This document shows, piece by piece, positions 6,961-64,000 of a DNA stretch of 64,000 nt. Location of the stretch: assembly GCA_018674305.1 (NCBI GenBank), contig JABHAL010000002.1, forward strand, positions 1,286 through 65,285, given 5' to 3'. The translations under genes and the position numbers were made by a program. The DNA comes from Candidatus Falkowbacteria bacterium. GTDB taxonomy: Bacteria; Patescibacteriota; Patescibacteriia; UBA11705; JABHMO01. Position 1 is the first letter of the stretch. Each line of letters starts with the position of its first letter. Under the pieces are notes generated by a model. It did not search any database, was not told the origin of the DNA, and saw only the letters and a program-made list of their open reading frames with translations.

Positions 6961-7500
6961 TTATTGTTTGGTAGTATCTATAAAGACAGCCTTAAACCTT
7001 CGGCTAAATAAGTTAAACACTGCAAATAACAAAACAGAAAGAACTAAATTAAACAAAATTTGCCAGAGTAAATCATTTATAGAATTTACAGTTAAATGAT
7101 TAATCAAAGAATAGTCCTTGACCTTTATCAGGTAATTGACAGCCGTGTACATGTAGAGAAAAGCATTATAAACAATCGTGGAAATTACAGTCAGCCCAAC
7201 TAGCGTATAAAGAGATTTATTAGTAAGAAAATGTACAAATATCTTGTAGGCGACATACATTGTTAATAATAAACTAACCAGTAAAGCCCCAAAAGGCAAA
7301 GCAGAATATAAATCCAAAATTACACCTAGTATAAATGCGTAGGTAGTCCCAATTGAAAACCGACCCACCATTGAAATAAAAATCAATACTACTATCAAAA
7401 CATTAATCTTGCCTAAGTTTGCAGGAAAGAGCGCTACCATTCCTAGCTGTAGACCCGCCAATAATAAAATAAAAAAAGTGTGTTTGATTAGCTTAATCAT
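6961..7500 (-). CDS. mreD: rod shape-determining protein MreD (polytopic membrane protein)
   Basis: 179 aa with 5-6 predicted TM helices. Its position between mreC and mrdA matches the canonical operon. Confidence 0.6.
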   Translation of the reverse strand: MIKLIKHTFFILLLAGLQLGMVALFPANLGKINVLIVVLIFISMVGRFSIGTTYAFILGVILDLYSALPFGALLVSLLLTMYVAYKIFVHFLTNKSLYTLVGLTVISTIVYNAFLYMYTAVNYLIKVKDYSLINHLTVNSINDLLWQILFNLVLSVLLFAVFNLFSRRFKAVFIDTTKQ

Positions 7501-10795: not shown

Positions 10796-11236
10796 CTAAT
10801 TGAGTTTTTTATATGAAATGAAAAATAATTCAATAACCGTAGTGAAAGAAATTACAATCAACATCAACCACCAGGTCAAATATCTTTGACTTTGTAAAAT
10901 CAAAGCCATGATGATTATAAAAGTAAATAATATTGCTTGCCTTGAAGCTAGGCTAATACTCTTTTGCGGGACTTCATCTTTTTTTAGTAATTTAATTCTG
11001 ACCCAAATACCGAACAACGACAGCAAAGATCCCAAGGAAAAAGCTAAACTAATGTAAAATAAAAACAAACCTAATATCCCAGCTTCAAATGGATTTATAA
11101 AAATTAAAACCAAAATCCAGGCTGCCCAACAGATAGCACAGCAAACTGATAAAATGATTGAATACCTAGTTATGGTCATATTGCCTATATCAATTTTAGC
11201 ATTAATATACTGGTCTTTCAATAGAGGTTTGTACAA
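10796..11236 (-). CDS. hypothetical integral membrane protein (4 TM)
   Basis: Hydrophobic 146-aa ORF. Confidence 0.35.
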   Translation of the reverse strand: MYKPLLKDQYINAKIDIGNMTITRYSIILSVCCAICWAAWILVLIFINPFEAGILGLFLFYISLAFSLGSLLSLFGIWVRIKLLKKDEVPQKSISLASRQAILFTFIIIMALILQSQRYLTWWLMLIVISFTTVIELFFISYKKLN

Positions 11237-11528
11237 TTTTCAGCTTTTTTACTATTTGACCACCAAATTTCTTGTTGATAGCCTCAATTATTGAATTTTT
11301 CTTAAAATTTAGTTCCTGAGCAATAATTGAATTAGCAGTCTCAACTTTCAAGATCTGACTCTTCAATGAAATAACTCTAACCAGCTCGTGCCCCTTTTTT
11401 CCCCAAAATTCACGCATTAAACCATTGGCAAACTCAACAACCATACCGGACATTATTTGTTTAGCCAGTGGTTTTTTCTTAAATCTAGAAAGTAATATTT
11501 TTTGTAGTGAATCCGCCATAAATTTCAA
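11202..11528 (-). CDS. DUF721 / DciA-like protein
   Basis: 108 aa. The LVRVISLKSQILKVETANSIIAQELNFKKNSIIEAINKKFG segment resembles the DUF721 core. Confidence 0.4.
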   Translation of the reverse strand: MKFMADSLQKILLSRFKKKPLAKQIMSGMVVEFANGLMREFWGKKGHELVRVISLKSQILKVETANSIIAQELNFKKNSIIEAINKKFGGQIVKKLKIVQTSIERPVY

Positions 11529-11567: not shown

Positions 11568-11596
11568 TTGACAAAATATATAATCTATGCTATAAT
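11568..11596 (+). promoter_or_regulatory. consensus promoter TTGACA, 17 nt, atGcTATAAT
   Basis: -35 at 11568-11573 and TGnTATAAT at 11588-11596. An AAGGAGG Shine-Dalgarno lies 7 nt before the ATG at 11644. Confidence 0.55.
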
Positions 11597-11643: not shown

Positions 11644-12321
11644 ATGAGAAAGTTCATCAATTTGTTTGTGATTTTAGGAATAATTATGTTTGCCAGCAAC
11701 GTGCAAGCAAAAGATGTGGATATGTCAAACTTTGACATGCGCGTGCGATTCAGCCGTGCAATAGAGTCCTGGGCGTTTCACAACTTCGATGTCCTGTTCG
11801 AGGCCAATGCATTTATCACTGACTACCAGACGATGAATGCCATGTTTGGTCTGTTGTACCACGTCGATCGGAACAGTAAACTGGTTCTGATGATTGGTCA
11901 ACAGTTGGGCGCAGGCGTGAGCAGCAACAATGTAGCTCTGACCGGTCGCTGGCATCAACGTGTAAGTCGGGTTGTAGGTTTCAAGTTGGAGGCGGATCTT
12001 TTCATTCCCATCCAGGCCAACAATGCCGAGAGCCAACCCACGGTCGGCTTCAGAACCTACGAGTCACTTGACTTTATGATCGAGCGCAGGATGTTCATCT
12101 CGCTCGGACTGGAACAGGAAAAGCTGGACAACTTCCGATATCGGTTCGGACCCAGTTTCACCTGGCAGTGGCTTCGAGTTTGGGCCGGATACCTTCATCA
12201 GGAAGAATCCGGTACAAAGCAAAGTTCCACAAATCAGCCAACGCCGGTGAACGCACAACCTCGCTGTACTGACTGCGACTGCGGAGATATGTTCTTCGCC
12301 TCAGTAGCGCTAACCTTCTAA
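11644..12321 (+). CDS. secreted protein with signal peptide; beta-barrel-like; C-terminal ...ASVALTF
   Basis: Signal peptide MRKFINLFVILGIIMFASNVQA|KD, alternating amphipathic strands and a C-terminal aromatic residue. Gene GC is ~50% versus ~33% in the flanks. Confidence 0.55.
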   Translation: MRKFINLFVILGIIMFASNVQAKDVDMSNFDMRVRFSRAIESWAFHNFDVLFEANAFITDYQTMNAMFGLLYHVDRNSKLVLMIGQQLGAGVSSNNVALTGRWHQRVSRVVGFKLEADLFIPIQANNAESQPTVGFRTYESLDFMIERRMFISLGLEQEKLDNFRYRFGPSFTWQWLRVWAGYLHQEESGTKQSSTNQPTPVNAQPRCTDCDCGDMFFASVALTF

Positions 12322-12439
12322 TTTCTGACCGCAACGGTCAAGAAAAACTCTTCAATGCATCTATTGGGGAGTTTTTTTGTCCATTAAAACATAAAAACAT
12401 GAAAGCATTAAAGCAATTACAGTAAATGTTCTGATGTTT

Positions 12440-13531
12440 TTATGTTTCAATGTAATTCAGCTTCTTAAACACTGCCACTAAAATATTCTCCAAAAATTGA
12501 TCTCGGGTATGAATATCAATGTCCTTATCTACACCTTCATCTTTTTCCATATAACGCCACATTTTCTTTTTCTTATCCCACAAATCAGTATTCTTCATCC
12601 GACACCAATCTATTTCACCCTCGTCTGGATCTTCAACTAACCCATGGGCCAAGCTTCCTAGAAGCTGCACCCTTGATACGTAGGAATCAGCCTCATCTGA
12701 CAATTGATCATTCCACATACCCTCCGCTTCTTGGTAACTGACTTTTTTCAAGTCACGATAAACCTGCTCAGCTTTTTCTTGATTACCTAAAAAATATTCA
12801 ACTATAACTTGAAGTAAATAGTTTTCAGTCATTTGACTTGAATCTTCACCAAATTCACCTACTCTATTCATCCAAACTTCTGCCTCAACGTCATATAACT
12901 CGCTTTGCTGTATCTCACTATAAAAATCCTTAGCTCTTGCCATCTGTCCATCAAACACAAATGCCAGGACGCCATAAAGCTGTGAATTACAATAAAAATT
13001 TTCTGGTCCATCAAATCTATGTTTATATAAACCATCACTCTTGCACCTAATATCAATTAAGTGCAGAAAGCTATCCGTAAAACGCTCTTGCGGCTTAATT
13101 AAATTCATATTAATTGCAGATAAAAACTGTGTAGCTGAAGTTACCCGACTGACACCTGATTCAGATTCAACGAAATCATCCCATAATCCGGTATCGCCAT
13201 AAGCCGTTGTTTTAAATAACCTACCTGTATTTTCTTTGACTTCCTCTGATGGCCCGCTTCGTAGCTTTTCTAATAATTCATTTGGCTTCATCAACGGAAA
13301 AAATTCCTTAGTTTCAATAAAATTAACGATTTGTTCTTTTTTTGTTATATAGTCCCGCATTACCTGAAGTGCCTCCTTACTTCCCGCTTCCGCCTTCGCC
13401 TTAAGCTCAGCAAAACCTAAACCGCCTGAAATCACTTCTAACTCAGACATTAATTTATCAAAATGACGTTGCTGAACTTCAGTGAAGCTAGCGTGGAGTG
13501 CTTTTTCTTGTAATTCGGATTCAATTTTCAT
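12440..13531 (-). CDS. hypothetical protein, member 1 of a tandem three-gene family (conserved 76-aa N-domain, variable C-domain)
   Basis: 363 aa. The N-terminus MKIESELQEKALHASFTEVQQRHFDKLMSELEVISGGLGFAELKAKAEAGSKEALQVMRDYITKKE is near-identical to those of 13553..14284 and 14295..15407. Confidence 0.6.
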   Translation of the reverse strand: MKIESELQEKALHASFTEVQQRHFDKLMSELEVISGGLGFAELKAKAEAGSKEALQVMRDYITKKEQIVNFIETKEFFPLMKPNELLEKLRSGPSEEVKENTGRLFKTTAYGDTGLWDDFVESESGVSRVTSATQFLSAINMNLIKPQERFTDSFLHLIDIRCKSDGLYKHRFDGPENFYCNSQLYGVLAFVFDGQMARAKDFYSEIQQSELYDVEAEVWMNRVGEFGEDSSQMTENYLLQVIVEYFLGNQEKAEQVYRDLKKVSYQEAEGMWNDQLSDEADSYVSRVQLLGSLAHGLVEDPDEGEIDWCRMKNTDLWDKKKKMWRYMEKDEGVDKDIDIHTRDQFLENILVAVFKKLNYIET

Positions 13532-13552
13532 AAACCAACTTTATAATTCAAT

Positions 13553-14284
13553 TTATTCAGGAAAATATAGCATATAATTATGTTTTCTTGAAGATAGCTC
13601 CCCAGTCTGTAATTCTGCTTCGACATGTACCCTTACTTGCTCAGGCTCATTATTAATATGCTCGACTGCTGTTATGCTTATTGATGTGACTTCTTCTTTA
13701 TCAAGCAAAGATTGCAATCGACTACCGACAATGTTTTCTGGATTCCTCTTACTCTTATCAAGTTGATAATGTTTATGCAATTCTAATCCAAAAATCGACT
13801 TAACAGCCAACGTAGTGATAAAACCGTTCAAAACTTGTTGAACATGATCAGTCTTAATTAATTGATCTGAAAAAAGCCAAAGCGGAGTATTGTCAAGCAT
13901 TTTTACTTTATAGAGTAATCCACGACTATCCTCTTGGGTAACTTCTTCAACTTCACACATCTTCCCATGGTATGGTTTACCTGGATGCCAAACCATCCCC
14001 TCATCACCAACACCAATAAAATATGACTTCCACTCTAAATTAGTCCCTAAAGGTATTTCTTTAGTTTCAATGAATTCAACAATCTTTTCTTTCTTAGCGA
14101 TATAATCACGCATTACTTGAAGCGCCTCTTTATCCCCTGCTTCTGCCTTTGCCTTAAGCTCAGCAAACCCAAAACCATCTGAGATTACTTCCAACTCAGA
14201 CATTAATTTATCAAAATGACGTTGCTGAACTTCGGTGAAGCTAGCATGAAGTGCGCGTTCTTGTATTTGCTCTAGTGATTTCAT
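13553..14284 (-). CDS. hypothetical protein, member 2 of the family (different C-terminal domain)
   Basis: 243 aa. It shares the N-domain, but its C-domain is unrelated to members 1 and 3. Confidence 0.6.
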   Translation of the reverse strand: MKSLEQIQERALHASFTEVQQRHFDKLMSELEVISDGFGFAELKAKAEAGDKEALQVMRDYIAKKEKIVEFIETKEIPLGTNLEWKSYFIGVGDEGMVWHPGKPYHGKMCEVEEVTQEDSRGLLYKVKMLDNTPLWLFSDQLIKTDHVQQVLNGFITTLAVKSIFGLELHKHYQLDKSKRNPENIVGSRLQSLLDKEEVTSISITAVEHINNEPEQVRVHVEAELQTGELSSRKHNYMLYFPE

Positions 14285-14294
14285 TTTATAATAG

Positions 14295-15407
14295 TTAATT
14301 TTTTATTTTTAATTTCTCGAAAATCGCAGTTAAAATAATATCCATTAACTCATCCGAAGTATTATAACCTTTTACACTGTTCTCTGTAGCTCGCCAACAA
14401 CCAGACTCAGGCTCAACCCAACGTGGGTCTTTTTTTAATTCCTGCCATTTTTCTTTTGCCTCATAGGGACTACCCAAAATGGCTTCAGCCATGATACCCA
14501 TTAGTTGATCAGTTGAAGTTCTCTCTACCTCTTCATCGTGATGATGGTAATTAGACTGTTTCCAACCAAGTTTTGGATCATAATATTCCTGTTTAAGATT
14601 TCCAAATCCCTGTCGAGCTTCTTCTTCCTGACCAAGAAAAAAGTTTACTAATTGATACAAAAGTTGATCTTTAGAATACAAACTTAAATCAGTAAAGTTT
14701 AATGTTTTATTTTGAGTTGTATCTGGGGTCACACTAGTAAACCATGAATCAAACTCTTCCATATAAAACTTAAGTTTCTTTAAATCTGACAAGCGCTGAC
14801 CAGCAGTATCAGCAAGATCATTTTTGGGCTGGATCAAAACCATCAAAATACTCAAAAATTGCCCTTCAGCATCATACTCTTCAACCCCAAGACTCAGATC
14901 GGCACAATTATATAGCCTGTTTTCTCGGTTATACATTTTACTTTCCCACGGCTGTGTTATTGAAGTTTGTATGTCACCTGTCAATTGGCCTGCCAATTCA
15001 AGAAGAACACAATTCCTATGGGTCACTGCATTACCTACCCCACCAAGTTTTTGGGTTAACATTTGCTTTTGCTTATCAAAGGCTGAAGTATATAACAATA
15101 CTTGTAATTTTTCTTTGGCTTTTTCAGCTGTGCCTTCATTTAAAATATTTCGCATAGTTTCAGCGTCTATATATGGCATTCGCTTGGTTTCAATAAACTC
15201 CACAATTTTTTCTTTCTTTGTAATGTAATCCCGCATAATTTGAAGTGCTTCTTTACTACCCAACTCAGCCTTTGCTTTAAGATCAGCAAATCCTAAACCA
15301 CCTGAAATCACTTCTAATTCAGACATTAATTTGTCAAAATGTTGTTGCTGAGCCCTATTAAAGTCAACCTTTAGTGCACTTTCCTGAATTTGTTCTAATG
15401 TTTTCAT
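14295..15407 (-). CDS. hypothetical protein, member 3 of the family
   Basis: 370 aa. The N-domain is shared, and the C-terminal third resembles member 1 (FFLGQEEEARQGF... versus FLGNQEKAEQVY...). It starts 4 nt after the helicase stop. Confidence 0.6.
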   Translation of the reverse strand: MKTLEQIQESALKVDFNRAQQQHFDKLMSELEVISGGLGFADLKAKAELGSKEALQIMRDYITKKEKIVEFIETKRMPYIDAETMRNILNEGTAEKAKEKLQVLLYTSAFDKQKQMLTQKLGGVGNAVTHRNCVLLELAGQLTGDIQTSITQPWESKMYNRENRLYNCADLSLGVEEYDAEGQFLSILMVLIQPKNDLADTAGQRLSDLKKLKFYMEEFDSWFTSVTPDTTQNKTLNFTDLSLYSKDQLLYQLVNFFLGQEEEARQGFGNLKQEYYDPKLGWKQSNYHHHDEEVERTSTDQLMGIMAEAILGSPYEAKEKWQELKKDPRWVEPESGCWRATENSVKGYNTSDELMDIILTAIFEKLKIKN

Positions 15408-15410
15408 GTT

Positions 15411-18389
15411 TTACAATTTTCGAAATTCACAAATATCTTTAAAGTCACAATGCCCACAAATGTGTTGACTGGGTTTAGGATCAAAATTTTGCTTTTTAAT
15501 TTGTTCAATATTATCCAAAAACCTTTGTTTGAGTTTTTCCTTGTCTTTAGAGTTGCCAAGAAAAGAGACTTGGCTGTCATCATCAAGAAAATAATAGGTT
15601 AATTTTTCTAACTTTATATTCAAAACTTCTTCAGCTGCAATCTGATAGAACATTAGCTGGCGTCGGTCCTCTGTGGATAATTTTTCTTTAACTTGCCCAG
15701 TTTTGTAATCAATAATTTCAAACTGCCCTTTTTCTAATTCATCCACTCGGTCAATACGCCCAACAAAGGTGTATTCCCCAATCTTCAATCGGAACGACTG
15801 TTCCAATAATTTAACTTTTGGTTTGTTTTTTTCAAAACCTTGGTGGAAGTTTTTTAATAAATCTTTGCCTTTTTCTAAATACTCCTCTTTTTGTTTTGCA
15901 TTAACATACCAATCATCCTGCCAGTTTTCATTATAAACTTCATATAACCTTTCTAACGACAATAATCTATTTTGGTTTGCTGGTTCGCGAGACATCCCTG
16001 TCTCGCTCCCTCCTACCGCAAATATATCTTGTTGGGTATGCAGTCCAACCGTAAAACATTCTTCCAAAAATTTTTGTAAAGTATTGTGAATAGTTGAACC
16101 AAATGAAAAATAGTGATTACCAAAGGTTGGAATTTTTAAAACATTGGCAAACTTGTACTTCAAAGGACAAGTTTCATAAGTCTGCATTTGTGAATAACTA
16201 AAATTGCGCGGTAGCTGATATTCAAAAGCCTTAGAGTCATCCTTTTGTACTCGCTCAACTGTAGGCTCAGCTTTTCCAGATTCTTCAGGTTTATTATACC
16301 CTAATTCTGTTAAAAAGCGAGACAATTTCTTTTTTCGTGCTCCACCATAGTCATCAGCTGAAGTGAAGAACAATCCCCTTTTTGCTCTGGTCATTGCTAC
16401 ATAAAATAATCTCCGTTCTTCCTCTAAATGAAAATCACCTTCTGAGGAGTCTTCTTTTATCAAAGAATCTGGAATTTCAATTACCTCTTTACGCTGATCG
16501 GTCGGAAATTTTCGATCAACCAAACAAGAAACGAACACATAATCAAATTCTAAACCCTTGGCACTGTGAATTGTCATAATACGCACCATGTCCGGACCAG
16601 TTTCCACGTCAAACGCCAATTTCCCACTTTCGCCCGATTGCATTTCCATATTCAAAAGCTCCATTAAGTCACTAAGCCTCGGATCCTCATACGACATTTC
16701 CACTTCTTGAATTTTCTTGAAAAATTGTTGAACAAAATCTAGCGTTTCTTTTGCTTTTGCTGGTTCCAAATCATTCAAATACTCCAAATAACCTGAGCCG
16801 TACAAAAAACTTAATAAAACTTCAGTCGGTTTTTTATTTTGTGCTAACTGAGTATCTTTTTCAACTTGAACTAAAATATTGTTAATTGACTTCAAAGTTT
16901 GTTCAGTTAAGCCTGGAACTGTTGAAGCCTGCTTTAATGATTCGAATATAGATATTGATTTTCTCTTAGCTAAATGAACCAATTTAACAATTTGTTCAGG
17001 CTCAATATTTAGAAATGGCAAGTTTAGAATTCGATAAACTGCCGCGCTCTCATGATAATTATCCAGCAACTTGAAATAATTAATAATATCAACCACAACT
17101 GATTTATTGTACAACCCTCGCATAGCCAGGAATTGGTACGGAATTTGAGCTTGTTCTAAATAATTAATAAAAATATTGGCGCTATCATTAGCCCTAACTA
17201 AAATTGCTATATCTGACCACTCCGCTTGCTGATCTTGTTTTAATTTTATTATTTTTTGAATTACTGCCTTTGCCTCTTCCTCAACAGACGACAAATGATA
17301 GTGAACAACCTCGCCTTTTTCAGAAACGTTAGATTTTAATTTTTTATCAATACCTAATTTTTCCTCCAATCGATATGGATTGTTTTGTAAAATAAAATTG
17401 TAGGCTAAATCTAGAATTTCCTGTGTAGATCGATAGTTTTCTATTAATACAACTTCTTTAGCCGTTGGGTAATCTTTTTTGAACTGCATTATATTAGAAA
17501 TCGAAGCTCCACGAAACTTGTAAATGCTCTGATCATCATCTCCTACAACTGTGATATTGTTTTTGGGTGTGGCCAAAAGTTTAATTAACTCGTATTGAAC
17601 AAAGTTTGTATCCTGAAACTCGTCAACCAAAATGTGTTTGAACTGTTGACGATATTTAGCCAAAATTAATGGGCGCTTTTTAAATAATTGAATTGTATAA
17701 TTTATTAAATCAGCGAAATCCAAGCTCTCATTATCAATTAAAATTTGCTGATAAGTCTGATAGGCATTGGCAATTTCCTCAATTCGAAGAATTTCTTGTT
17801 TTAATATTTCTTTTTGATTAGCTTCGTCAACCTTACTGAAATCTATTTTGTTTACGAAATCGTGAACATCATCATTTAACTTGATTTCCTGTGCATATTT
17901 TAAATAATTTTCAGGATAAATACCTTCATCCTTGCAACGAGAGAAATGCTTTAACAGTGCGTGGATAAACTTGGTTGGATTACCTAACGGCTGATAATAT
18001 TCTAATTTGAACTTGTCCAAATTTTTCCTCACCAAGAGCCAGGCCTCCGTCCCATCCACGAGTTTGTAATTATTTGGCAAACCAATATCCAGAGCATGCC
18101 GTTTCAAAATTTTGTCACAAAAAGCATGAAAAGTTGAAATCCACAAATCAACATAACCATATGGAAGCATTTGATCCACGCGCTCTTCCATTTCCTGCGC
18201 AGATTTTTCAGTAAAAGTTAAAGCTAATACTTCATCAACATTAGCATTTTTTTCAGTAATCAAATATGCAATTCTGGCAGTTACAACCCGAGTCTTCCCC
18301 GTACCAGCTCCAGCCACAATCAACTGAGGTCCATCTTCGTGAATAATGGCTTGCTTTTGTTGTTCATTTGATTCAGAAATTAGACTCAT
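15411..18389 (-). CDS. UvrD/PcrA-type SF1 helicase fused to a C-terminal PD-(D/E)XK (Cas4/RecB-like) nuclease with a Cys4 cluster
   Basis: AGAGTGKT Walker A near the N-terminus and helicase motifs through ~aa 700. The C-terminus carries YETCPLKYKF...CGHCDFKDIC, a Cas4/AddB-like Fe-S nuclease signature. Confidence 0.8.
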   Translation of the reverse strand: MSLISESNEQQKQAIIHEDGPQLIVAGAGTGKTRVVTARIAYLITEKNANVDEVLALTFTEKSAQEMEERVDQMLPYGYVDLWISTFHAFCDKILKRHALDIGLPNNYKLVDGTEAWLLVRKNLDKFKLEYYQPLGNPTKFIHALLKHFSRCKDEGIYPENYLKYAQEIKLNDDVHDFVNKIDFSKVDEANQKEILKQEILRIEEIANAYQTYQQILIDNESLDFADLINYTIQLFKKRPLILAKYRQQFKHILVDEFQDTNFVQYELIKLLATPKNNITVVGDDDQSIYKFRGASISNIMQFKKDYPTAKEVVLIENYRSTQEILDLAYNFILQNNPYRLEEKLGIDKKLKSNVSEKGEVVHYHLSSVEEEAKAVIQKIIKLKQDQQAEWSDIAILVRANDSANIFINYLEQAQIPYQFLAMRGLYNKSVVVDIINYFKLLDNYHESAAVYRILNLPFLNIEPEQIVKLVHLAKRKSISIFESLKQASTVPGLTEQTLKSINNILVQVEKDTQLAQNKKPTEVLLSFLYGSGYLEYLNDLEPAKAKETLDFVQQFFKKIQEVEMSYEDPRLSDLMELLNMEMQSGESGKLAFDVETGPDMVRIMTIHSAKGLEFDYVFVSCLVDRKFPTDQRKEVIEIPDSLIKEDSSEGDFHLEEERRLFYVAMTRAKRGLFFTSADDYGGARKKKLSRFLTELGYNKPEESGKAEPTVERVQKDDSKAFEYQLPRNFSYSQMQTYETCPLKYKFANVLKIPTFGNHYFSFGSTIHNTLQKFLEECFTVGLHTQQDIFAVGGSETGMSREPANQNRLLSLERLYEVYNENWQDDWYVNAKQKEEYLEKGKDLLKNFHQGFEKNKPKVKLLEQSFRLKIGEYTFVGRIDRVDELEKGQFEIIDYKTGQVKEKLSTEDRRQLMFYQIAAEEVLNIKLEKLTYYFLDDDSQVSFLGNSKDKEKLKQRFLDNIEQIKKQNFDPKPSQHICGHCDFKDICEFRKL

Positions 18390-18616
18390 ATGTGTATATA
18401 TTAGCACAAAAAAGACCCGTCAGACAAGAGACCCAAATCAGGTATCTTTACATGCTCCTGTCTCTCCTAGGCCACCTTGAGACTTGACATTACTTGAAAT
18501 AATTGCTAATCTATTGAAATCAAGATTGTACACATTGACACCAAAAACCATAAATGATATTTTAGAAAAGTATTTGTACAGCTAGTTCATTTAAACTCTT
18601 AGTGTGAGGAGATCAA

Positions 18617-18883
18617 ATGTCGAGATTCTCTGATGGCCGTTTTTGCACTCAGCCCAATGGGCAAGGAGGAACATGCAATGCGTTAATGGAGGAAAAATCA
18701 GTTTTTTGGCGTTGTCCTAAAGGGCATGATATAGTTTTCATGGAAAGTGAAGAGATAAAGGAAAAACTTGCTCGTGAACAAGTACGTTCAGAGCATGGTG
18801 GTAAAATTGCTTTTCGTAGTGCTTTATCAATGGACGGAAAAGAACTCTTTGCTAGACCAAACACACGCGGTGGTGCAAAATAA
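18617..18883 (+). CDS. small zinc-ribbon protein, 88 aa
   Basis: FCTQPNGQGGTCN...RCPKGH motif. Paralogous to the next ORF. GC is elevated (~42%). Confidence 0.45.
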   Translation: MSRFSDGRFCTQPNGQGGTCNALMEEKSVFWRCPKGHDIVFMESEEIKEKLAREQVRSEHGGKIAFRSALSMDGKELFARPNTRGGAK

Positions 18884-18909
18884 GCTCATCAATGGCTCAG
18901 GAGTAAACA

Positions 18910-19218
18910 GTGAGCAAAATATTTGAACAAGGGAACTTTTGTCCAGAGTGTGCTCAACATGGACAGTACAAACTGATGCAGAAAGGCATAGTTGTTCTAC
19001 GTTGTCCTGCTTGCCAACATGCCATGCCACTGCCTAAAGCAGAAATAAAACAACTCTCGGATCAAGCAGAACTTGAACTAGTTAGAGAAGAACGAATGAA
19101 ACGAGCGATTATTAGACCAGACATCGGGGAAATTTCCTCCCGCTTTAATGGCCGAAACCCAAGACCGACCGATTCAATGACTACAGAGATGAAGAAAACA
19201 GGTTGCAAAACAAGATAG
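18910..19218 (+). CDS. small zinc-ribbon protein, 102 aa; paralog
   Basis: FCPECAQHG...RCPACQH motif. A hairpin plus T-run terminator lies at ~19226-19260. Confidence 0.45.
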   Translation: MSKIFEQGNFCPECAQHGQYKLMQKGIVVLRCPACQHAMPLPKAEIKQLSDQAELELVREERMKRAIIRPDIGEISSRFNGRNPRPTDSMTTEMKKTGCKTR

Positions 19219-19915: not shown

Positions 19916-20767
19916 TTACAAACGGCGTCGTCGCCCACTGGTATTTGACTGCCAGTAAGGATCAACGGTAACTGTTGAGGTCTCATCTTCGACTAATACT
20001 TCAGACTCAAACTCATCTTCTTCGATTGCTACTTCGACCTCGTCCGCATCAACAAGGATCATACTTTCGATTTCATCAATGATAACATCCTCATCATCAA
20101 GAATAATAGGATCTAGCACTTCGACTTCATCCGCATCAACAAGGATAACACCCGCGTCATCATCGTAATCAAGAATAATCTCATCGGGATTTGGTCCGAC
20201 TTCAATTTCACTTGGATGATCGTCAGTTGTGTCAACCATGACACCTTCATCTTCTTCAGGCTCAGGCGTAACTTCAGGCGCCTCAGCTCTGTTAGCCTTG
20301 GCGCCTTGGCTAAAATCCGGCGGTCCACCGTGGGCAGTCACCCCAATTGAAGTGTCTTCAGTAAAGTCAACCACCCTCCAACGTTCGCCATCAAACACGG
20401 CCAGCTTGACCCAGACAGTCAATTTGGGATGCTTGCGCTTGATGTTAGCAACAGCTTTTTCCAGATCAGCTTTGTAAGCTTTACGCTCAGCTGCTCGATC
20501 TCTGAACTTTTGAGTTCCACCATAAGCGCCACAATCATCATGAGCAACCAAGTAAACCTCAGTTACTCCATGTAGATCAACTGACAAGTTTACCATCTTC
20601 ATGGTACTGTCACGAGTTATTACATCGGCCAACATTTTCTGTCCACCAGGAATTGTGACTACATCACAATCGTCCCGTAGTCCATTATCAATCATGAACT
20701 TGTGAACAGCACCTTGGATCCTAAAATCCATACATGTAACCAATAAAGAAGCACAGTTATGCGACAT
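19916..20767 (-). CDS. beta-class carbonic anhydrase (Cab-type) with a long acidic, repetitive C-terminal tail
   Basis: CMDFR (CxDxR) and HDDCGAYGG (HxxCG) zinc-ligand motifs. The C-terminal ~140 aa are D/E-rich with ILVDADEVEV repeated, ending in RRRRL. The gene body is GC-rich (~48%). The start is placed at the MSHNC aligned with the paralog. Confidence 0.55.
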   Translation of the reverse strand: MSHNCASLLVTCMDFRIQGAVHKFMIDNGLRDDCDVVTIPGGQKMLADVITRDSTMKMVNLSVDLHGVTEVYLVAHDDCGAYGGTQKFRDRAAERKAYKADLEKAVANIKRKHPKLTVWVKLAVFDGERWRVVDFTEDTSIGVTAHGGPPDFSQGAKANRAEAPEVTPEPEEDEGVMVDTTDDHPSEIEVGPNPDEIILDYDDDAGVILVDADEVEVLDPIILDDEDVIIDEIESMILVDADEVEVAIEEDEFESEVLVEDETSTVTVDPYWQSNTSGRRRRL

Positions 20768-20851
20768 TTTTTCCCTCCTGTGTAAAGAACTTGACTGATT
20801 GTAAAGTTTAGCACATATTATAATATTGTCAAGTACTATTGCAAAATAACT

Positions 20852-20880
20852 CAAAAAAGCCCCTTTAGGGGCTTTTAACG
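20852..20880 (-). terminator. rho-independent terminator
   Basis: gcccc-taaa-ggggc followed by TTTTTT on the minus strand, after the 20887..21297 stop. Confidence 0.55.
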
Positions 20881-20886
20881 TTTATC

Positions 20887-21297
20887 TTAAAGTTCCTTGA
20901 TCTCAATTTCTTCATCTTCATTAAAAACAACTAGCATTTTACGTACAGCGATATCTGGATATTTTTTCTTTACTATTTCTTCTGCCGTTGTCATATCTTC
21001 GTCATATTTTGCTTTTTCAGATTCATCATCGTCAAAACTATCACTTCCACCATAGGCACCACAATCCTGATGCGCCATAAATATAACTGTATTTATACCG
21101 TGGAGTTTTACTGAAAGTTCAATTTGTTTCAAAACTGTAGCACGAGTATCTTCATCCAATAATGCTTTTTGTGCACCAGCAATAGATACTAAATCATAAT
21201 CTTTTGTTAATCCGTTCTCATTTACCCAACAACAAATAGCTTTATGAAATCGAAAATCCATGCAGGTAATTAAAAGATTGTTGCAATTGTGTGACAT
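20887..21297 (-). CDS. beta-class carbonic anhydrase (Cab-type), short
   Basis: ITCMDFRF...SIAGAQ...MAHQDCGAYGG aligns with archaeal Cab ITCMDSRL...NAGN...GHTDCGM. AT-rich like the host genome. Confidence 0.55.
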   Translation of the reverse strand: MSHNCNNLLITCMDFRFHKAICCWVNENGLTKDYDLVSIAGAQKALLDEDTRATVLKQIELSVKLHGINTVIFMAHQDCGAYGGSDSFDDDESEKAKYDEDMTTAEEIVKKKYPDIAVRKMLVVFNEDEEIEIKEL

Positions 21298-62679: not shown

Positions 62680-63948
62680 TTACTCAGTCTTATCCAATTC
62701 TGCTGCTGCGTCTGCAGCATCGCCCTTGGGCAAGAACCTAGCCAATGCTGGCAAGACCTTGGCTGCGTCGCCCAGGCCATCAACCAAACGATGCGCAATC
62801 GCCAATCCGGACTGACCTTCCAGAACAGCTAAATCACCAAATTCCTTGGCAACCATCTTGGCAACTTCCACATCACCCAAGCGATTGATAGCTGCAGCAA
62901 CATCGCCCTTCATGACCTCAGCAACCTTGACTGCGGCTTCAACCTTGGCGGCATGAATACGCTCAGCCAGTGCCTGTAGCTCGCCCTGGTACGCTACAGA
63001 TTGCTCCTGGTCTGCCTGCTTAATCAGCAGACGCTCTGCAGAAAGAAGCTTCTCCACTTCCAGATCTGACTGCTGAGCAACCAACTTTGCCTCAGTTAGA
63101 GCCAGCTCAGCTGTCTGACGATCCTTGCTTCGAGTAAGGTCAGCTTCCTGCTGTGTCCTCTTGAGATCAAGATCACGCTGTAACTCAGCCTTTCTCTTGG
63201 CAGCCTCAAACTCGCTACTGGCTTCAATCAGCTTGTGTTTGTGATCCTGCTCAGTTCCTGCCTGCTCACGAGCATGCTCAAGCTCTTCAGTACGCAGATG
63301 ACGCACTGCCTCAGCTTCACCACTGTCCTCAATGGTTTTTTCGTTCAACCTTTCCATCGAGGCGTCATGCTCAGCTTTTTCAGTTTCACGTACGGCAACT
63401 AACTCCTTTCGACTCAGCACCTGTAAGGCTTCAGTTGCCACGACTGTACGCTGCTTGCGTTCCAACTTCAGGTTTTGCTGAACAATGTCAAACCGCGCCT
63501 CATCCAGCATACGCTGGATTTCAGGATCAATAACTGTCACCTTGAGCAGGTCGACATCGTAGATACGCATGTTGTTCTCATCAAAGAACATTCCCTTGCG
63601 ATCTTCACCGTCAACCTTTTTGCCCAGAATGGCGTCACGGATAATCTCCGTGTAACCAGCTTCAAATTCCGAAATGGTAAAGCCCTTGGCTACACCCTTG
63701 ATCACGCTACGTACGTGATCACACAGGAATTTAACATAGTTGTCAACTGCAAACCACTTGATCTGATCCTCAGGGTCTTCAGCTTCGAAATTTACTCGAT
63801 AACTAAGTTTCATGCTGGCTCTCACCAGATCACTGGTCACGACCTCAATGATGTCGCTAACCTTGTTGCCATGAATACATAGATACACAGTTGGCAACAG
63901 CCTATCCGTAGTCTTGGGCTTCCCCATAGACAAAGCCATATGCTCCAA
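62680..63948 (-). CDS. GC-rich coiled-coil protein with an SPFH/band-7 or major-vault-like N-region; the start may lie beyond the window
   Basis: 422-aa ORF at ~50% GC with a long E/A/K/R-rich helical C-terminal half. The codon at 63946-63948 is TTG rather than ATG, so the N-terminus is uncertain and the gene is possibly partial. Confidence 0.35.
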   Translation of the reverse strand: MEHMALSMGKPKTTDRLLPTVYLCIHGNKVSDIIEVVTSDLVRASMKLSYRVNFEAEDPEDQIKWFAVDNYVKFLCDHVRSVIKGVAKGFTISEFEAGYTEIIRDAILGKKVDGEDRKGMFFDENNMRIYDVDLLKVTVIDPEIQRMLDEARFDIVQQNLKLERKQRTVVATEALQVLSRKELVAVRETEKAEHDASMERLNEKTIEDSGEAEAVRHLRTEELEHAREQAGTEQDHKHKLIEASSEFEAAKRKAELQRDLDLKRTQQEADLTRSKDRQTAELALTEAKLVAQQSDLEVEKLLSAERLLIKQADQEQSVAYQGELQALAERIHAAKVEAAVKVAEVMKGDVAAAINRLGDVEVAKMVAKEFGDLAVLEGQSGLAIAHRLVDGLGDAAKVLPALARFLPKGDAADAAAELDKTE

Positions 63949-64000
63949 CTCTTCATCGTATTCCAGAGTAATTGAAGCTGGGCCAACAACAACTCTACTC

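Follow-up and report, generated by a model that had tools for sequence, protein, structure and literature searches.

A probable housekeeping helicase-nuclease gene beside an insertion of three adaptor-like paralogs in Candidatus Falkowbacteria

We analysed a 64,000-nucleotide stretch of Candidatus Falkowbacteria DNA (hereafter the window; assembly GCA_018674305.1, contig JABHAL010000002.1) that contains, at 12440-18407, four co-directional open reading frames (ORFs) on the minus strand: a helicase-nuclease gene followed by three paralogs, p1, p2 and p3, which share an N-terminal domain (N-domain) and differ in their C-terminal domains (C-domains). A first-pass annotation had seen in these genes a multi-component, defence-like system. 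The gene arrangement is real and was accurately described, but this headline interpretation fails. The locus is probably a housekeeping helicase-nuclease gene standing beside an unrelated insertion of three members of a lineage-specific, adaptor-like family. On this explanation the 998-aa gene would encode the lineage's single-chain helicase-nuclease for DNA repair or replication, and p1-p3 would be hitch-hikers, three of the roughly two dozen genes per genome that make up an expanded orphan family. The first-pass annotation had held a similar alternative in reserve, a housekeeping repair enzyme with unrelated neighbours, and conserved synteny and unlinked paralogs make it the better description. 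Below, compared loci carry L-numbers and family proteins P-numbers; the genes of the locus and their N-domain segments, with hidden Markov model (HMM) E-values, are as follows.

15411..18407, minus strand: helicase-nuclease gene, 998 aa, GTG start
14295..15407, minus strand: p1, 370 aa; N-domain (aa 1-77) and (α/α)6-barrel-type C-domain
15177..15407, minus strand: N-domain segment of p1, the constant four-helix module; HMM 1.5e-42, AlphaFold2 predicted local distance difference test (pLDDT) 85.8
13553..14284, minus strand: p2, 243 aa; N-domain and an orphan 165-aa C-domain
14054..14284, minus strand: N-domain segment of p2; HMM 6.7e-45, direct repeat family D1
12440..13531, minus strand: p3, 363 aa; N-domain and (α/α)6-barrel C-domain
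13301..13531, minus strand: N-domain segment of p3; HMM 2e-45, direct repeat family D1

A scan for helicase orthologs, with one genome per GTDB species, gave 20 loci (42-73% identity), all in Patescibacteria-type metagenome-assembled genomes (MAGs), and at none of the 20 was an N-domain ORF found within 6 kb. Six of these loci (L014, L015, L022, L028, L032 and L033) share one gene order: ATP synthase β/ε, a carbonic-anhydrase-like gene in some cases, CvpA, helicase, DciA, a 146-aa membrane protein, prolyl-tRNA synthetase, MreB and MreC. The window keeps that same order. Because synteny is conserved in six related genomes and all 20 loci lack an N-domain neighbour, we regard the helicase-nuclease, on these comparisons, as a conserved housekeeping gene and not as a member of the paralog family. 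In L022, whose helicase is 73% identical to that of the window, the match to the helicase stops at 7403 and that to dciA begins at 7440, 37 nt further on; in the window the corresponding interval spans about 3.9 kb and holds p1-p3 and an ORF on the opposite strand, orf225. Since relatives keep the block with dciA next after the helicase and without p1-p3, the three paralogs are best read as a lineage-specific insertion of about 3 kb into a housekeeping block. A sister assembly, GCA_964434235.1 (CAYSUN01), is a decisive case, for it carries both the helicase (L022) and its own diverged N-domain family (L034), unlinked: at L034, three tandem N-domain genes lie upstream of hrcA-grpE, with glycosyltransferase (GT) GT4, Wzy and GHL15 genes nearby. 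The features that bound the insertion on its far side are these.

12382..12452, strand not assigned: hairpin at the p3 3' end; 28-nt arms, 86% complementary, 15-nt loop
11644..12321, plus strand: orf225, signal-peptide-like N-terminus; borders the p1-p3 insertion on its far side
11202..11528, minus strand: dciA (Pfam DciA, 1.9e-09), directly after the helicase in relatives; marks the insertion context

The spacers between helicase and p1, p1 and p2, and p2 and p3 measure 3, 10 and 21 nt; gaps of 4, 10 and 21 nt had been annotated, so that the co-directional layout and the last two values stand and the first is corrected. The helicase has an alternative start, an ATG six codons in, which is the start called in public records and yields a protein of 992 aa. 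No terminator-like site was found on the minus strand within 12440-18407. Because of this, and of gaps of only 3-21 nt, p1-p3 are probably read through from the helicase, that is, co-transcribed. The hairpin at 12382-12452 sits between the convergent p3 and orf225 and likely marks the end of the transcription unit. Upstream of orf225, which has no Pfam match, a perfect sigma-70 consensus (TTGACA-17-TATAAT, with extended TG) is found at 11568-11596; L014, L015 and L028 also have an opposite-strand gene (142-210 aa) between helicase and dciA, with a similar hydrophobic, signal-peptide-like N-terminus.

Some of the compared loci show peculiarities of their own. In L008, a metagenome strain variant, a BrxB gene of the bacteriophage exclusion (BREX) system and an 828-aa gene (12243-15420) replace or interrupt the dciA side. 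The BrxB gene lies about 1 kb downstream, at a position corresponding to just past window 11644-12321, which makes the stretch between helicase and dciA a variable site of insertion. The title 'uncultured Gammaproteobacteria bacterium' is borne by several MAGs (L015, L020-L022, L026-L029) that carry the Patescibacteria-type block, with helicases 62-73% identical to that of the window; it looks like a placeholder or a mislabel. The helicase match extends over 4.1 kb in L033 (5824-9933) and 3.2 kb in L017 (6001-9240), against an expected 3.0 kb, which suggests that additional sequence, perhaps an intein or a further domain, is inserted in these genes.

The 998-aa protein has the domains and motifs of a UvrD/PcrA-type superfamily 1 (SF1) helicase with a C-terminal Cas4/AddB-like PD-(D/E)XK nuclease and a four-cysteine cluster, which bears out the first-pass annotation of a UvrD helicase fused to a Cas4-like nuclease. 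Pfam matches UvrD-helicase (1.4e-80), UvrD_C (4.6e-54) and PDDEXK_1 (1.6e-37), and weakly Cas_Cas4; the motifs DEFQD262, GRIDR883, IIDYK898 and QLMFY917 are present, together with Cys747 and Cys984/987/993 (Cys-X(236)-Cys-X2-Cys-X5-Cys). The closest solved structures are PcrA (1pjr, 1.6e-101), then UvrD and Rep. Weaker relatives include AddA (6e-36), a UvrD/REP helicase chain (6ppu_B/6ppr_B, 1e-31) and GajB (1e-12), the GajB alignment being limited to some 65-70 N-terminal residues (query residues 14-83). The protein falls below every NCBIfam equivalog cut-off, scoring 506 against 911 for PcrA (TIGR01073), 210 against 708 for AddA and 150 against 696 for RecB, and just under the cut-off for Cas4 TIGR00372 (63.5 against 65). 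Among the 25 PADLOC profile matches listed (with 33 further families), 24 are GajB and one is the helicase of a defence-associated reverse transcriptase (DRT) system (RTasHel). Because PcrA is matched at 1e-101 and GajB only at 1e-12, these hits, though strong, reflect generic SF1/UvrD similarity. No second helicase-nuclease-like gene (AddB, AdnA or RecC subunit) was found in the window or in the syntenic loci. The arrangement of a PcrA-like motor and an iron-sulphur (Fe-S) Cas4-like nuclease in a single chain is conserved across Patescibacteria.

Over 75-80 aa, the N-domains of the three paralogs are identical at 76.9% (p1-p2), 76.0% (p1-p3) and 82.5% (p2-p3); the shared domain reported earlier is thus real, its identity (76-83%) being slightly lower than the 80-90% then claimed over about 76 residues. 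These three copies are the only ones in the window. The border between N- and C-domain is sharp in all family members, at ...FIETK(E/K), and AlphaFold2 models the module of about 76 aa as four helices (pLDDT 86). A DNA-binding role was considered and is unlikely, since the domain is acidic (isoelectric point ~5.4). Searches of p1-p3 detected no hydrophobic segment, no signal peptide and no transmembrane segment. Neither Pfam, NCBIfam, PADLOC nor PHROGs gave a significant family for p1-p3, which bears out the earlier remark that no family is recognisable, and a comparison of the N-domain profile with Protein Data Bank (PDB) sequences returned nothing meaningful (best E 0.083).

Among the window copies, N-domain DNA identity is 73-78% and synonymous sites are saturated (proportion of synonymous differences, pS, 0.58-0.76), while the nonsynonymous rate (dN) is 0.11-0.17. 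Because the synonymous rate (dS) is saturated and dN low, the similarity is kept by strong purifying selection at the protein level rather than by recent gene conversion or as a DNA/RNA element. Across 38 sequences, twenty-three columns do not vary; the polar residues among them (Q20, Q21, E30, E32, S35, R59, K64, K65, E66 and E73) may reflect an interaction surface, beyond fold stability alone. Three N-domain sub-lineages can be distinguished (a main one, P0066/69/71 and P0068/72), with 60-80% identity inside each. Cross-lineage orthologs with matching C-domains (P0066 and P0018, both WD40; P0071 and P0037; P0069 and P0052) share only 28-37% of their N-domain residues. Hence the C-domain classes are older than the lineage split, and the likeness of N-domains within a genome indicates that they evolved in concert genome by genome. 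Such a pattern is expected where a module must fit one shared partner or its own paralogs. In L012 (3252-9121), four N-domain genes belong to a diverged subtype (HMM 1e-27 to 1e-34, against ~1e-45 for the rest), one example sharing about 60% identity with the copies in the window; one genome therefore holds more than one N-domain subtype.

The C-domains fall into at least 26 classes by BLAST clustering, in agreement with the first-pass picture of a fixed, adaptor-like N-domain joined to exchangeable C-domains. A Pfam scan of 45 members recognised only WD40/β-propellers, in three of them. p1 and p3 have distantly homologous C-domains (~23% identity, linked through P0002/P0005), and that of p2 is unrelated to both, as had been noted. 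The p1/p3 domain is an (α/α)6 barrel, like glycan-active enzymes, in which E252 is the sole invariant acidic residue across five sequences; a Foldseek comparison of the p3 model with viral structures gave none at E ≤ 0.001. Relatives of the p2 C-domain are found only in P0031, P0047 and P0063, all N-domain proteins, and a search with the p2 C-domain alone returned only itself.

A database search with p1 retrieved 40 proteins, most of them sharing the N-domain alone. All matches with a source name (under half) come from Candidatus Falkowbacteria, and many bear locus tags that place them at scattered points of a single MAG. When 1.84 billion cluster representatives were searched exhaustively with a profile, 55 matched, 47 of them at E ≤ 1e-10; the N-domain occupies residues 1 to about 80 in all but one, a repetitive false positive. 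Viral collections and PHROGs gave no N-domain match. Pattern scans of genome, metagenome and viral contig collections gave no confirmed relatives, the domain being either absent there or missed by the patterns. Contigs were then fetched for p1-related proteins and scanned with the N-domain HMM. In this one Falkowbacteria population the family amounts to about 24 genes, spread over at least seven loci (the count includes loci with proteins identical to ones in the population of the window), and about 21 of the 24 lie outside the window locus. Six further locus types hold one to eight tandem copies each, and no UvrD/PDDEXK gene was found at any of them: the helicase is present at the window locus only.

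L009/L003/L004: 5-6 N-domain genes between an FtsI-like penicillin-binding protein (PBP) gene and a Mur ligase gene
L001: 8 N-domain genes at the same position as in L009/L003/L004, in a related genome
L010: 4 N-domain genes before MurC/MurB, in the same assembly as the window
L011: 3 N-domain genes between MurI and RseP
L012: 8 N-domain genes between the tyrosyl- and arginyl-tRNA synthetase genes (TyrRS, ArgRS)
L013: 1 N-domain gene, a WD40 fusion, after SecY-Adk-Map at the end of a ribosomal-protein operon

The arrays are tandem, always co-directional with housekeeping operons and wedged into them. No recurrent non-family partner gene was found beside them, and no secretion-system gene recurs there. 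L009 and L004 match at 99.7% identity for some 10 kb; 27 nt beyond the stop codon of one paralog the match ends, and each strain then carries its own paralog set. The breakpoint (L009 11970, equivalent to L004 9922) falls in an intergenic spacer. The arrays thus turn over at strain level. The first three loci had raised the idea of an exclusive tie to peptidoglycan genes, which was weakened by the arrays at TyrRS/ArgRS and in the ribosomal-protein operon. The envelope or peptidoglycan neighbourhood of several arrays (L003/L004/L009, L010, L011 and L034) and the glycan-enzyme-like p1/p3 fold are suggestive only. Genes with a 23S_rRNA_IVP/bAvd domain also occur near arrays (L001 19826-20215; L004 2079-2456; L009 4127-4504 and 16358-17929), one of them fused to an alanine racemase. 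The bAvd fold is a four-helix accessory fold of diversity-generating retroelements.

How, then, should the four genes be understood? That the helicase-nuclease and the paralogs are one antiviral system, in which the N-domain docks on the helicase and the C-domains sense or act, seems extremely improbable. It could draw on four co-directional genes spaced by only 3-21 nt, where no terminator-like site intervenes, on the PADLOC GajB and DRT-helicase HMMs that match the helicase, and on the BrxB gene of L008, which indicates that the neighbourhood tolerates defence-gene insertions. However, about 21 of the 24 or so family members lie at six locus types without a helicase, all 20 helicase loci are free of N-domain genes, the helicase stands in housekeeping synteny and the sister genome carries both components unlinked. 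The PADLOC matches are generic, the helicase belongs to SF1, a partner resembling GajA or HamA is missing and p1-p3 give no PADLOC hit, so that the Gabija- or Hachiman-like logic earlier ascribed to the locus does not hold. Because arrays occur without a UvrD/PDDEXK gene at six locus types, gene order around the helicase is kept in six related genomes and the two components are unlinked in CAYSUN01, both observations that the first-pass annotation had named as fatal to a helicase coupling, paralogs widespread without the helicase and housekeeping synteny, have been made. Two points nevertheless weigh against a housekeeping gene with unrelated neighbours: probable co-transcription leaves room for a local functional link between p1-p3 and the helicase, and the status of the enzyme as sole member of the RecB family was surveyed in the window and syntenic loci only. 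A different proposal concerns the paralogs themselves, as an exported effector or adhesion repertoire for episymbiosis, with the N-domain as a non-Sec export or display tag, much like the N-terminal trafficking domains of polymorphic toxins or of type VII secretion system (T7SS) substrates, and C-domains that bind or modify host or envelope glycans and proteins. The constant N-terminus and variable C-terminus, the binding-type C-domains (WD40 and the barrel like glycan-active enzymes), array content that varies between strains with 99.7% identical flanks, and the proximity of several arrays to envelope genes (PBP/Mur, MurC/MurB, MurI, GT/Wzy/GHL15) agree with it. It is nonetheless unlikely: the proteins have no signal peptide or transmembrane segment, no secretion-system gene recurs beside the arrays, toxin domains and interleaved immunity genes are missing, and the ribosomal-protein and aminoacyl-tRNA synthetase arrays imply that the envelope association is not general.

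By analogy with the INT domain of VPARP or with encapsulin cargo-loading peptides, the N-domain might be a cargo tag that loads modules into a shell made of a major vault protein (MVP) homolog. In L001 and L003 such homologs (Vault_3 and MVP_shoulder) stand at a distance of 5-9 kb from the arrays, and another is found at window 62680-64000, 85% identical to the 971-aa Vault_3 and MVP_shoulder protein of L001; TEP1, a component of the eukaryotic vault, is a WD40 protein. We hold this idea to be very improbable. MVP homologs occur in many bacterial phyla (1226 matches, ~40% identity), but the N-domain only in a single small clade; linkage is loose, with 47 kb between MVP and p1-p3 in the window, and the support amounts to co-presence in a genome. 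A specific co-distribution of the family with MVP was therefore rejected, MVP being too widespread. The abstract of a 2019 preprint (10.1101/872010) names Myxococcales, Cytophagales and Oscillatoriales as the only bacteria with MVPs. It is likewise highly doubtful that the conserved 5' segment is kept by gene conversion, or as a DNA or RNA element for the shuffling of C-cassettes, and not for protein function. The sharp N/C boundary, the tandem arrays and the lineage-homogeneous N-domains would fit, but with saturated synonymous sites, dN of 0.11-0.17 and dN/dS well below 1, there was no recent conversion among the window copies, and gene conversion as sole explanation is rejected. DNA identity (73-78%) does not exceed protein identity, the two strains part within an intergenic spacer and not in the repeat, and no Rfam family was matched in the window at gathering thresholds. 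The MVP homologs are located as follows.

62680-64000 of the window, minus strand: C-terminal part of an MVP homolog running off the window end; MVP_shoulder 8.5e-29, local GC content raised (0.435)
L001 16050-18965: MVP homolog
L003 17058-18130: MVP homolog

On the reading preferred here, the N-module may be a coupling or docking adaptor, either self-associating in homotypic bundles or plugging into one lineage-specific hub. It would thus bring many different binding or enzyme-like C-modules, interchangeable among members, to one place. A bolder proposal, which we consider quite improbable, is that the N-domain is a new lineage-specific adaptor assembling some two dozen modules (WD40, (α/α)6 and unclassified) into one supramolecular structure: a homotypic polymer, a hub-docked array or, conceivably, the vault-like particle of MVP or an apparatus for contact with the host. 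If this were true, a streamlined episymbiont of the Candidate Phyla Radiation would spend a few percent of its genes on a cellulosome- or vault-like modular machine without described counterpart. Streamlined episymbionts seldom show expansions of this size, which usually mark the key ecological interface of the organism. In any case, a reduced Patescibacteria genome here carries a large expansion of orphan paralogs, in which one constant handle, under strong selection and co-evolving within each lineage, is joined to at least 26 kinds of C-module; the binding partner of the handle would hint at an assembly or export route peculiar to the lineage. The 998-aa gene and p1-p3 should stay out of catalogues of helicase-nuclease immunity; a single-chain PcrA-motor/Cas4-nuclease next to dciA is, on the other hand, a useful marker of Patescibacteria DNA-end processing.

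The neighbourhood holds a few further elements. A 33-nt inverted repeat, 82% complementary (12394-12426 and 15380-15412), flanks the p1-p3 block. Its plus-strand arm reads ATG AAA GCA TTA AAG CAA TTA CAG TAA (MKALKQLQ*) and resembles an N-domain gene start; it may be the relic of an inverted fourth copy, or a chance likeness. Just upstream of the helicase, at 18617-19218 on the plus strand, two small divergent ORFs encode zinc-ribbon-like proteins with CxxC pairs and a weak DZR match. The minus strand carries, at 19916-21297, a tandem pair of Pro_CA_2 (β-carbonic-anhydrase-like) genes, of which the second has a long, highly acidic, repetitive C-terminal tail. No Rfam family was detected across the whole window at gathering thresholds.

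Compared with known enzymes, the helicase-nuclease shares the full UvrD-helicase and UvrD_C motor with PcrA, UvrD and Rep, but the PcrA/UvrD equivalog has about 720 aa and no nuclease, whereas the window protein carries an extra 260-aa nuclease domain. Like AddA and RecB, it joins a UvrD-like motor and a RecB-family nuclease in one chain, with the motifs GRIDR, IIDYK and QxxxY; it differs from AddAB, AdnAB and RecBCD in being a single gene, without an adjacent second subunit and with sub-equivalog scores. The four-cysteine arrangement and D/E-x-K motifs recall the Fe-S nucleases AddB and Cas4. Cas4, however, is normally a stand-alone protein of about 200 aa in a CRISPR-cas locus and is here a domain of a 998-aa helicase; no cas genes were seen among the annotated neighbours, and no search aimed at CRISPR arrays was made. 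The likeness to Gabija lies in GajB, a UvrD-like helicase whose PADLOC profiles match the window helicase, but a gene for GajA (OLD-type ATPase/TOPRIM) is missing, and the window helicase is flanked by genes for N-domain proteins, CvpA and DciA, in housekeeping synteny. Hachiman combines a superfamily 2 (SF2) helicase, HamB, with the nuclease HamA (DUF1837), whereas the window helicase is of the SF1 UvrD type and p1-p3 match nothing in Pfam or PADLOC. Nhi-like systems are single-protein nuclease-helicases of variable defence islands; the window gene stands in housekeeping synteny, with orthologs in 20 Patescibacteria species.

For the paralog family, the closest conceptual precedent is offered by the effector-associated domains (EADs) and Death-like domains described by Kaur, Burroughs, Iyer and Aravind in 2020 (PMC7159879), which are small, α-helical and terminal, have many lineage-specific paralogs and were proposed to couple components by homotypic interaction. 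The N-domain resembles EADs (PMC7159879) as a small, non-enzymatic, all-α terminal domain with many paralogs per genome and diverse fusions, and its copies are likewise closer to lineage-specific paralogs than to orthologs. It departs from them in that none of the 45 Pfam-scanned members is fused to a core nucleoside triphosphatase (NTPase), vWA or STAND module, and no enzymatic effector domain is recognised; moreover, it belongs to no Pfam family, and its arrays sit in housekeeping operons and not in conflict islands. The N-domain was not found on the AAA-like 861-aa protein beside the L012 array. By analogy, the family may work like an EAD or a dockerin, and we would file it under neither. 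With dockerins, whose general properties are textbook knowledge, it shares one constant module of about 70 aa on dozens of proteins per genome, in species-specific versions, with variable partners that include (α/α)6 glycoside-hydrolase-like and β-propeller modules. However, the N-domain is N-terminal and not C-terminal, there is no Dockerin Pfam match and no signal peptide, and no scaffoldin-like hub was identified. Polymorphic toxins have in common with it a conserved N-terminal region, a hypervariable C-terminal domain and tandem arrays; they differ in that the present C-domains are of binding or repeat type, with no toxin family in the Pfam scan and no known trafficking domain, and that consecutive array genes all bear the N-domain, with no immunity genes between them. 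The UmbA paralogs of umbrella toxins reportedly also follow a design of constant docking and variable module. The family is thus a new instance of a known design, that of the constant handle with a variable module.

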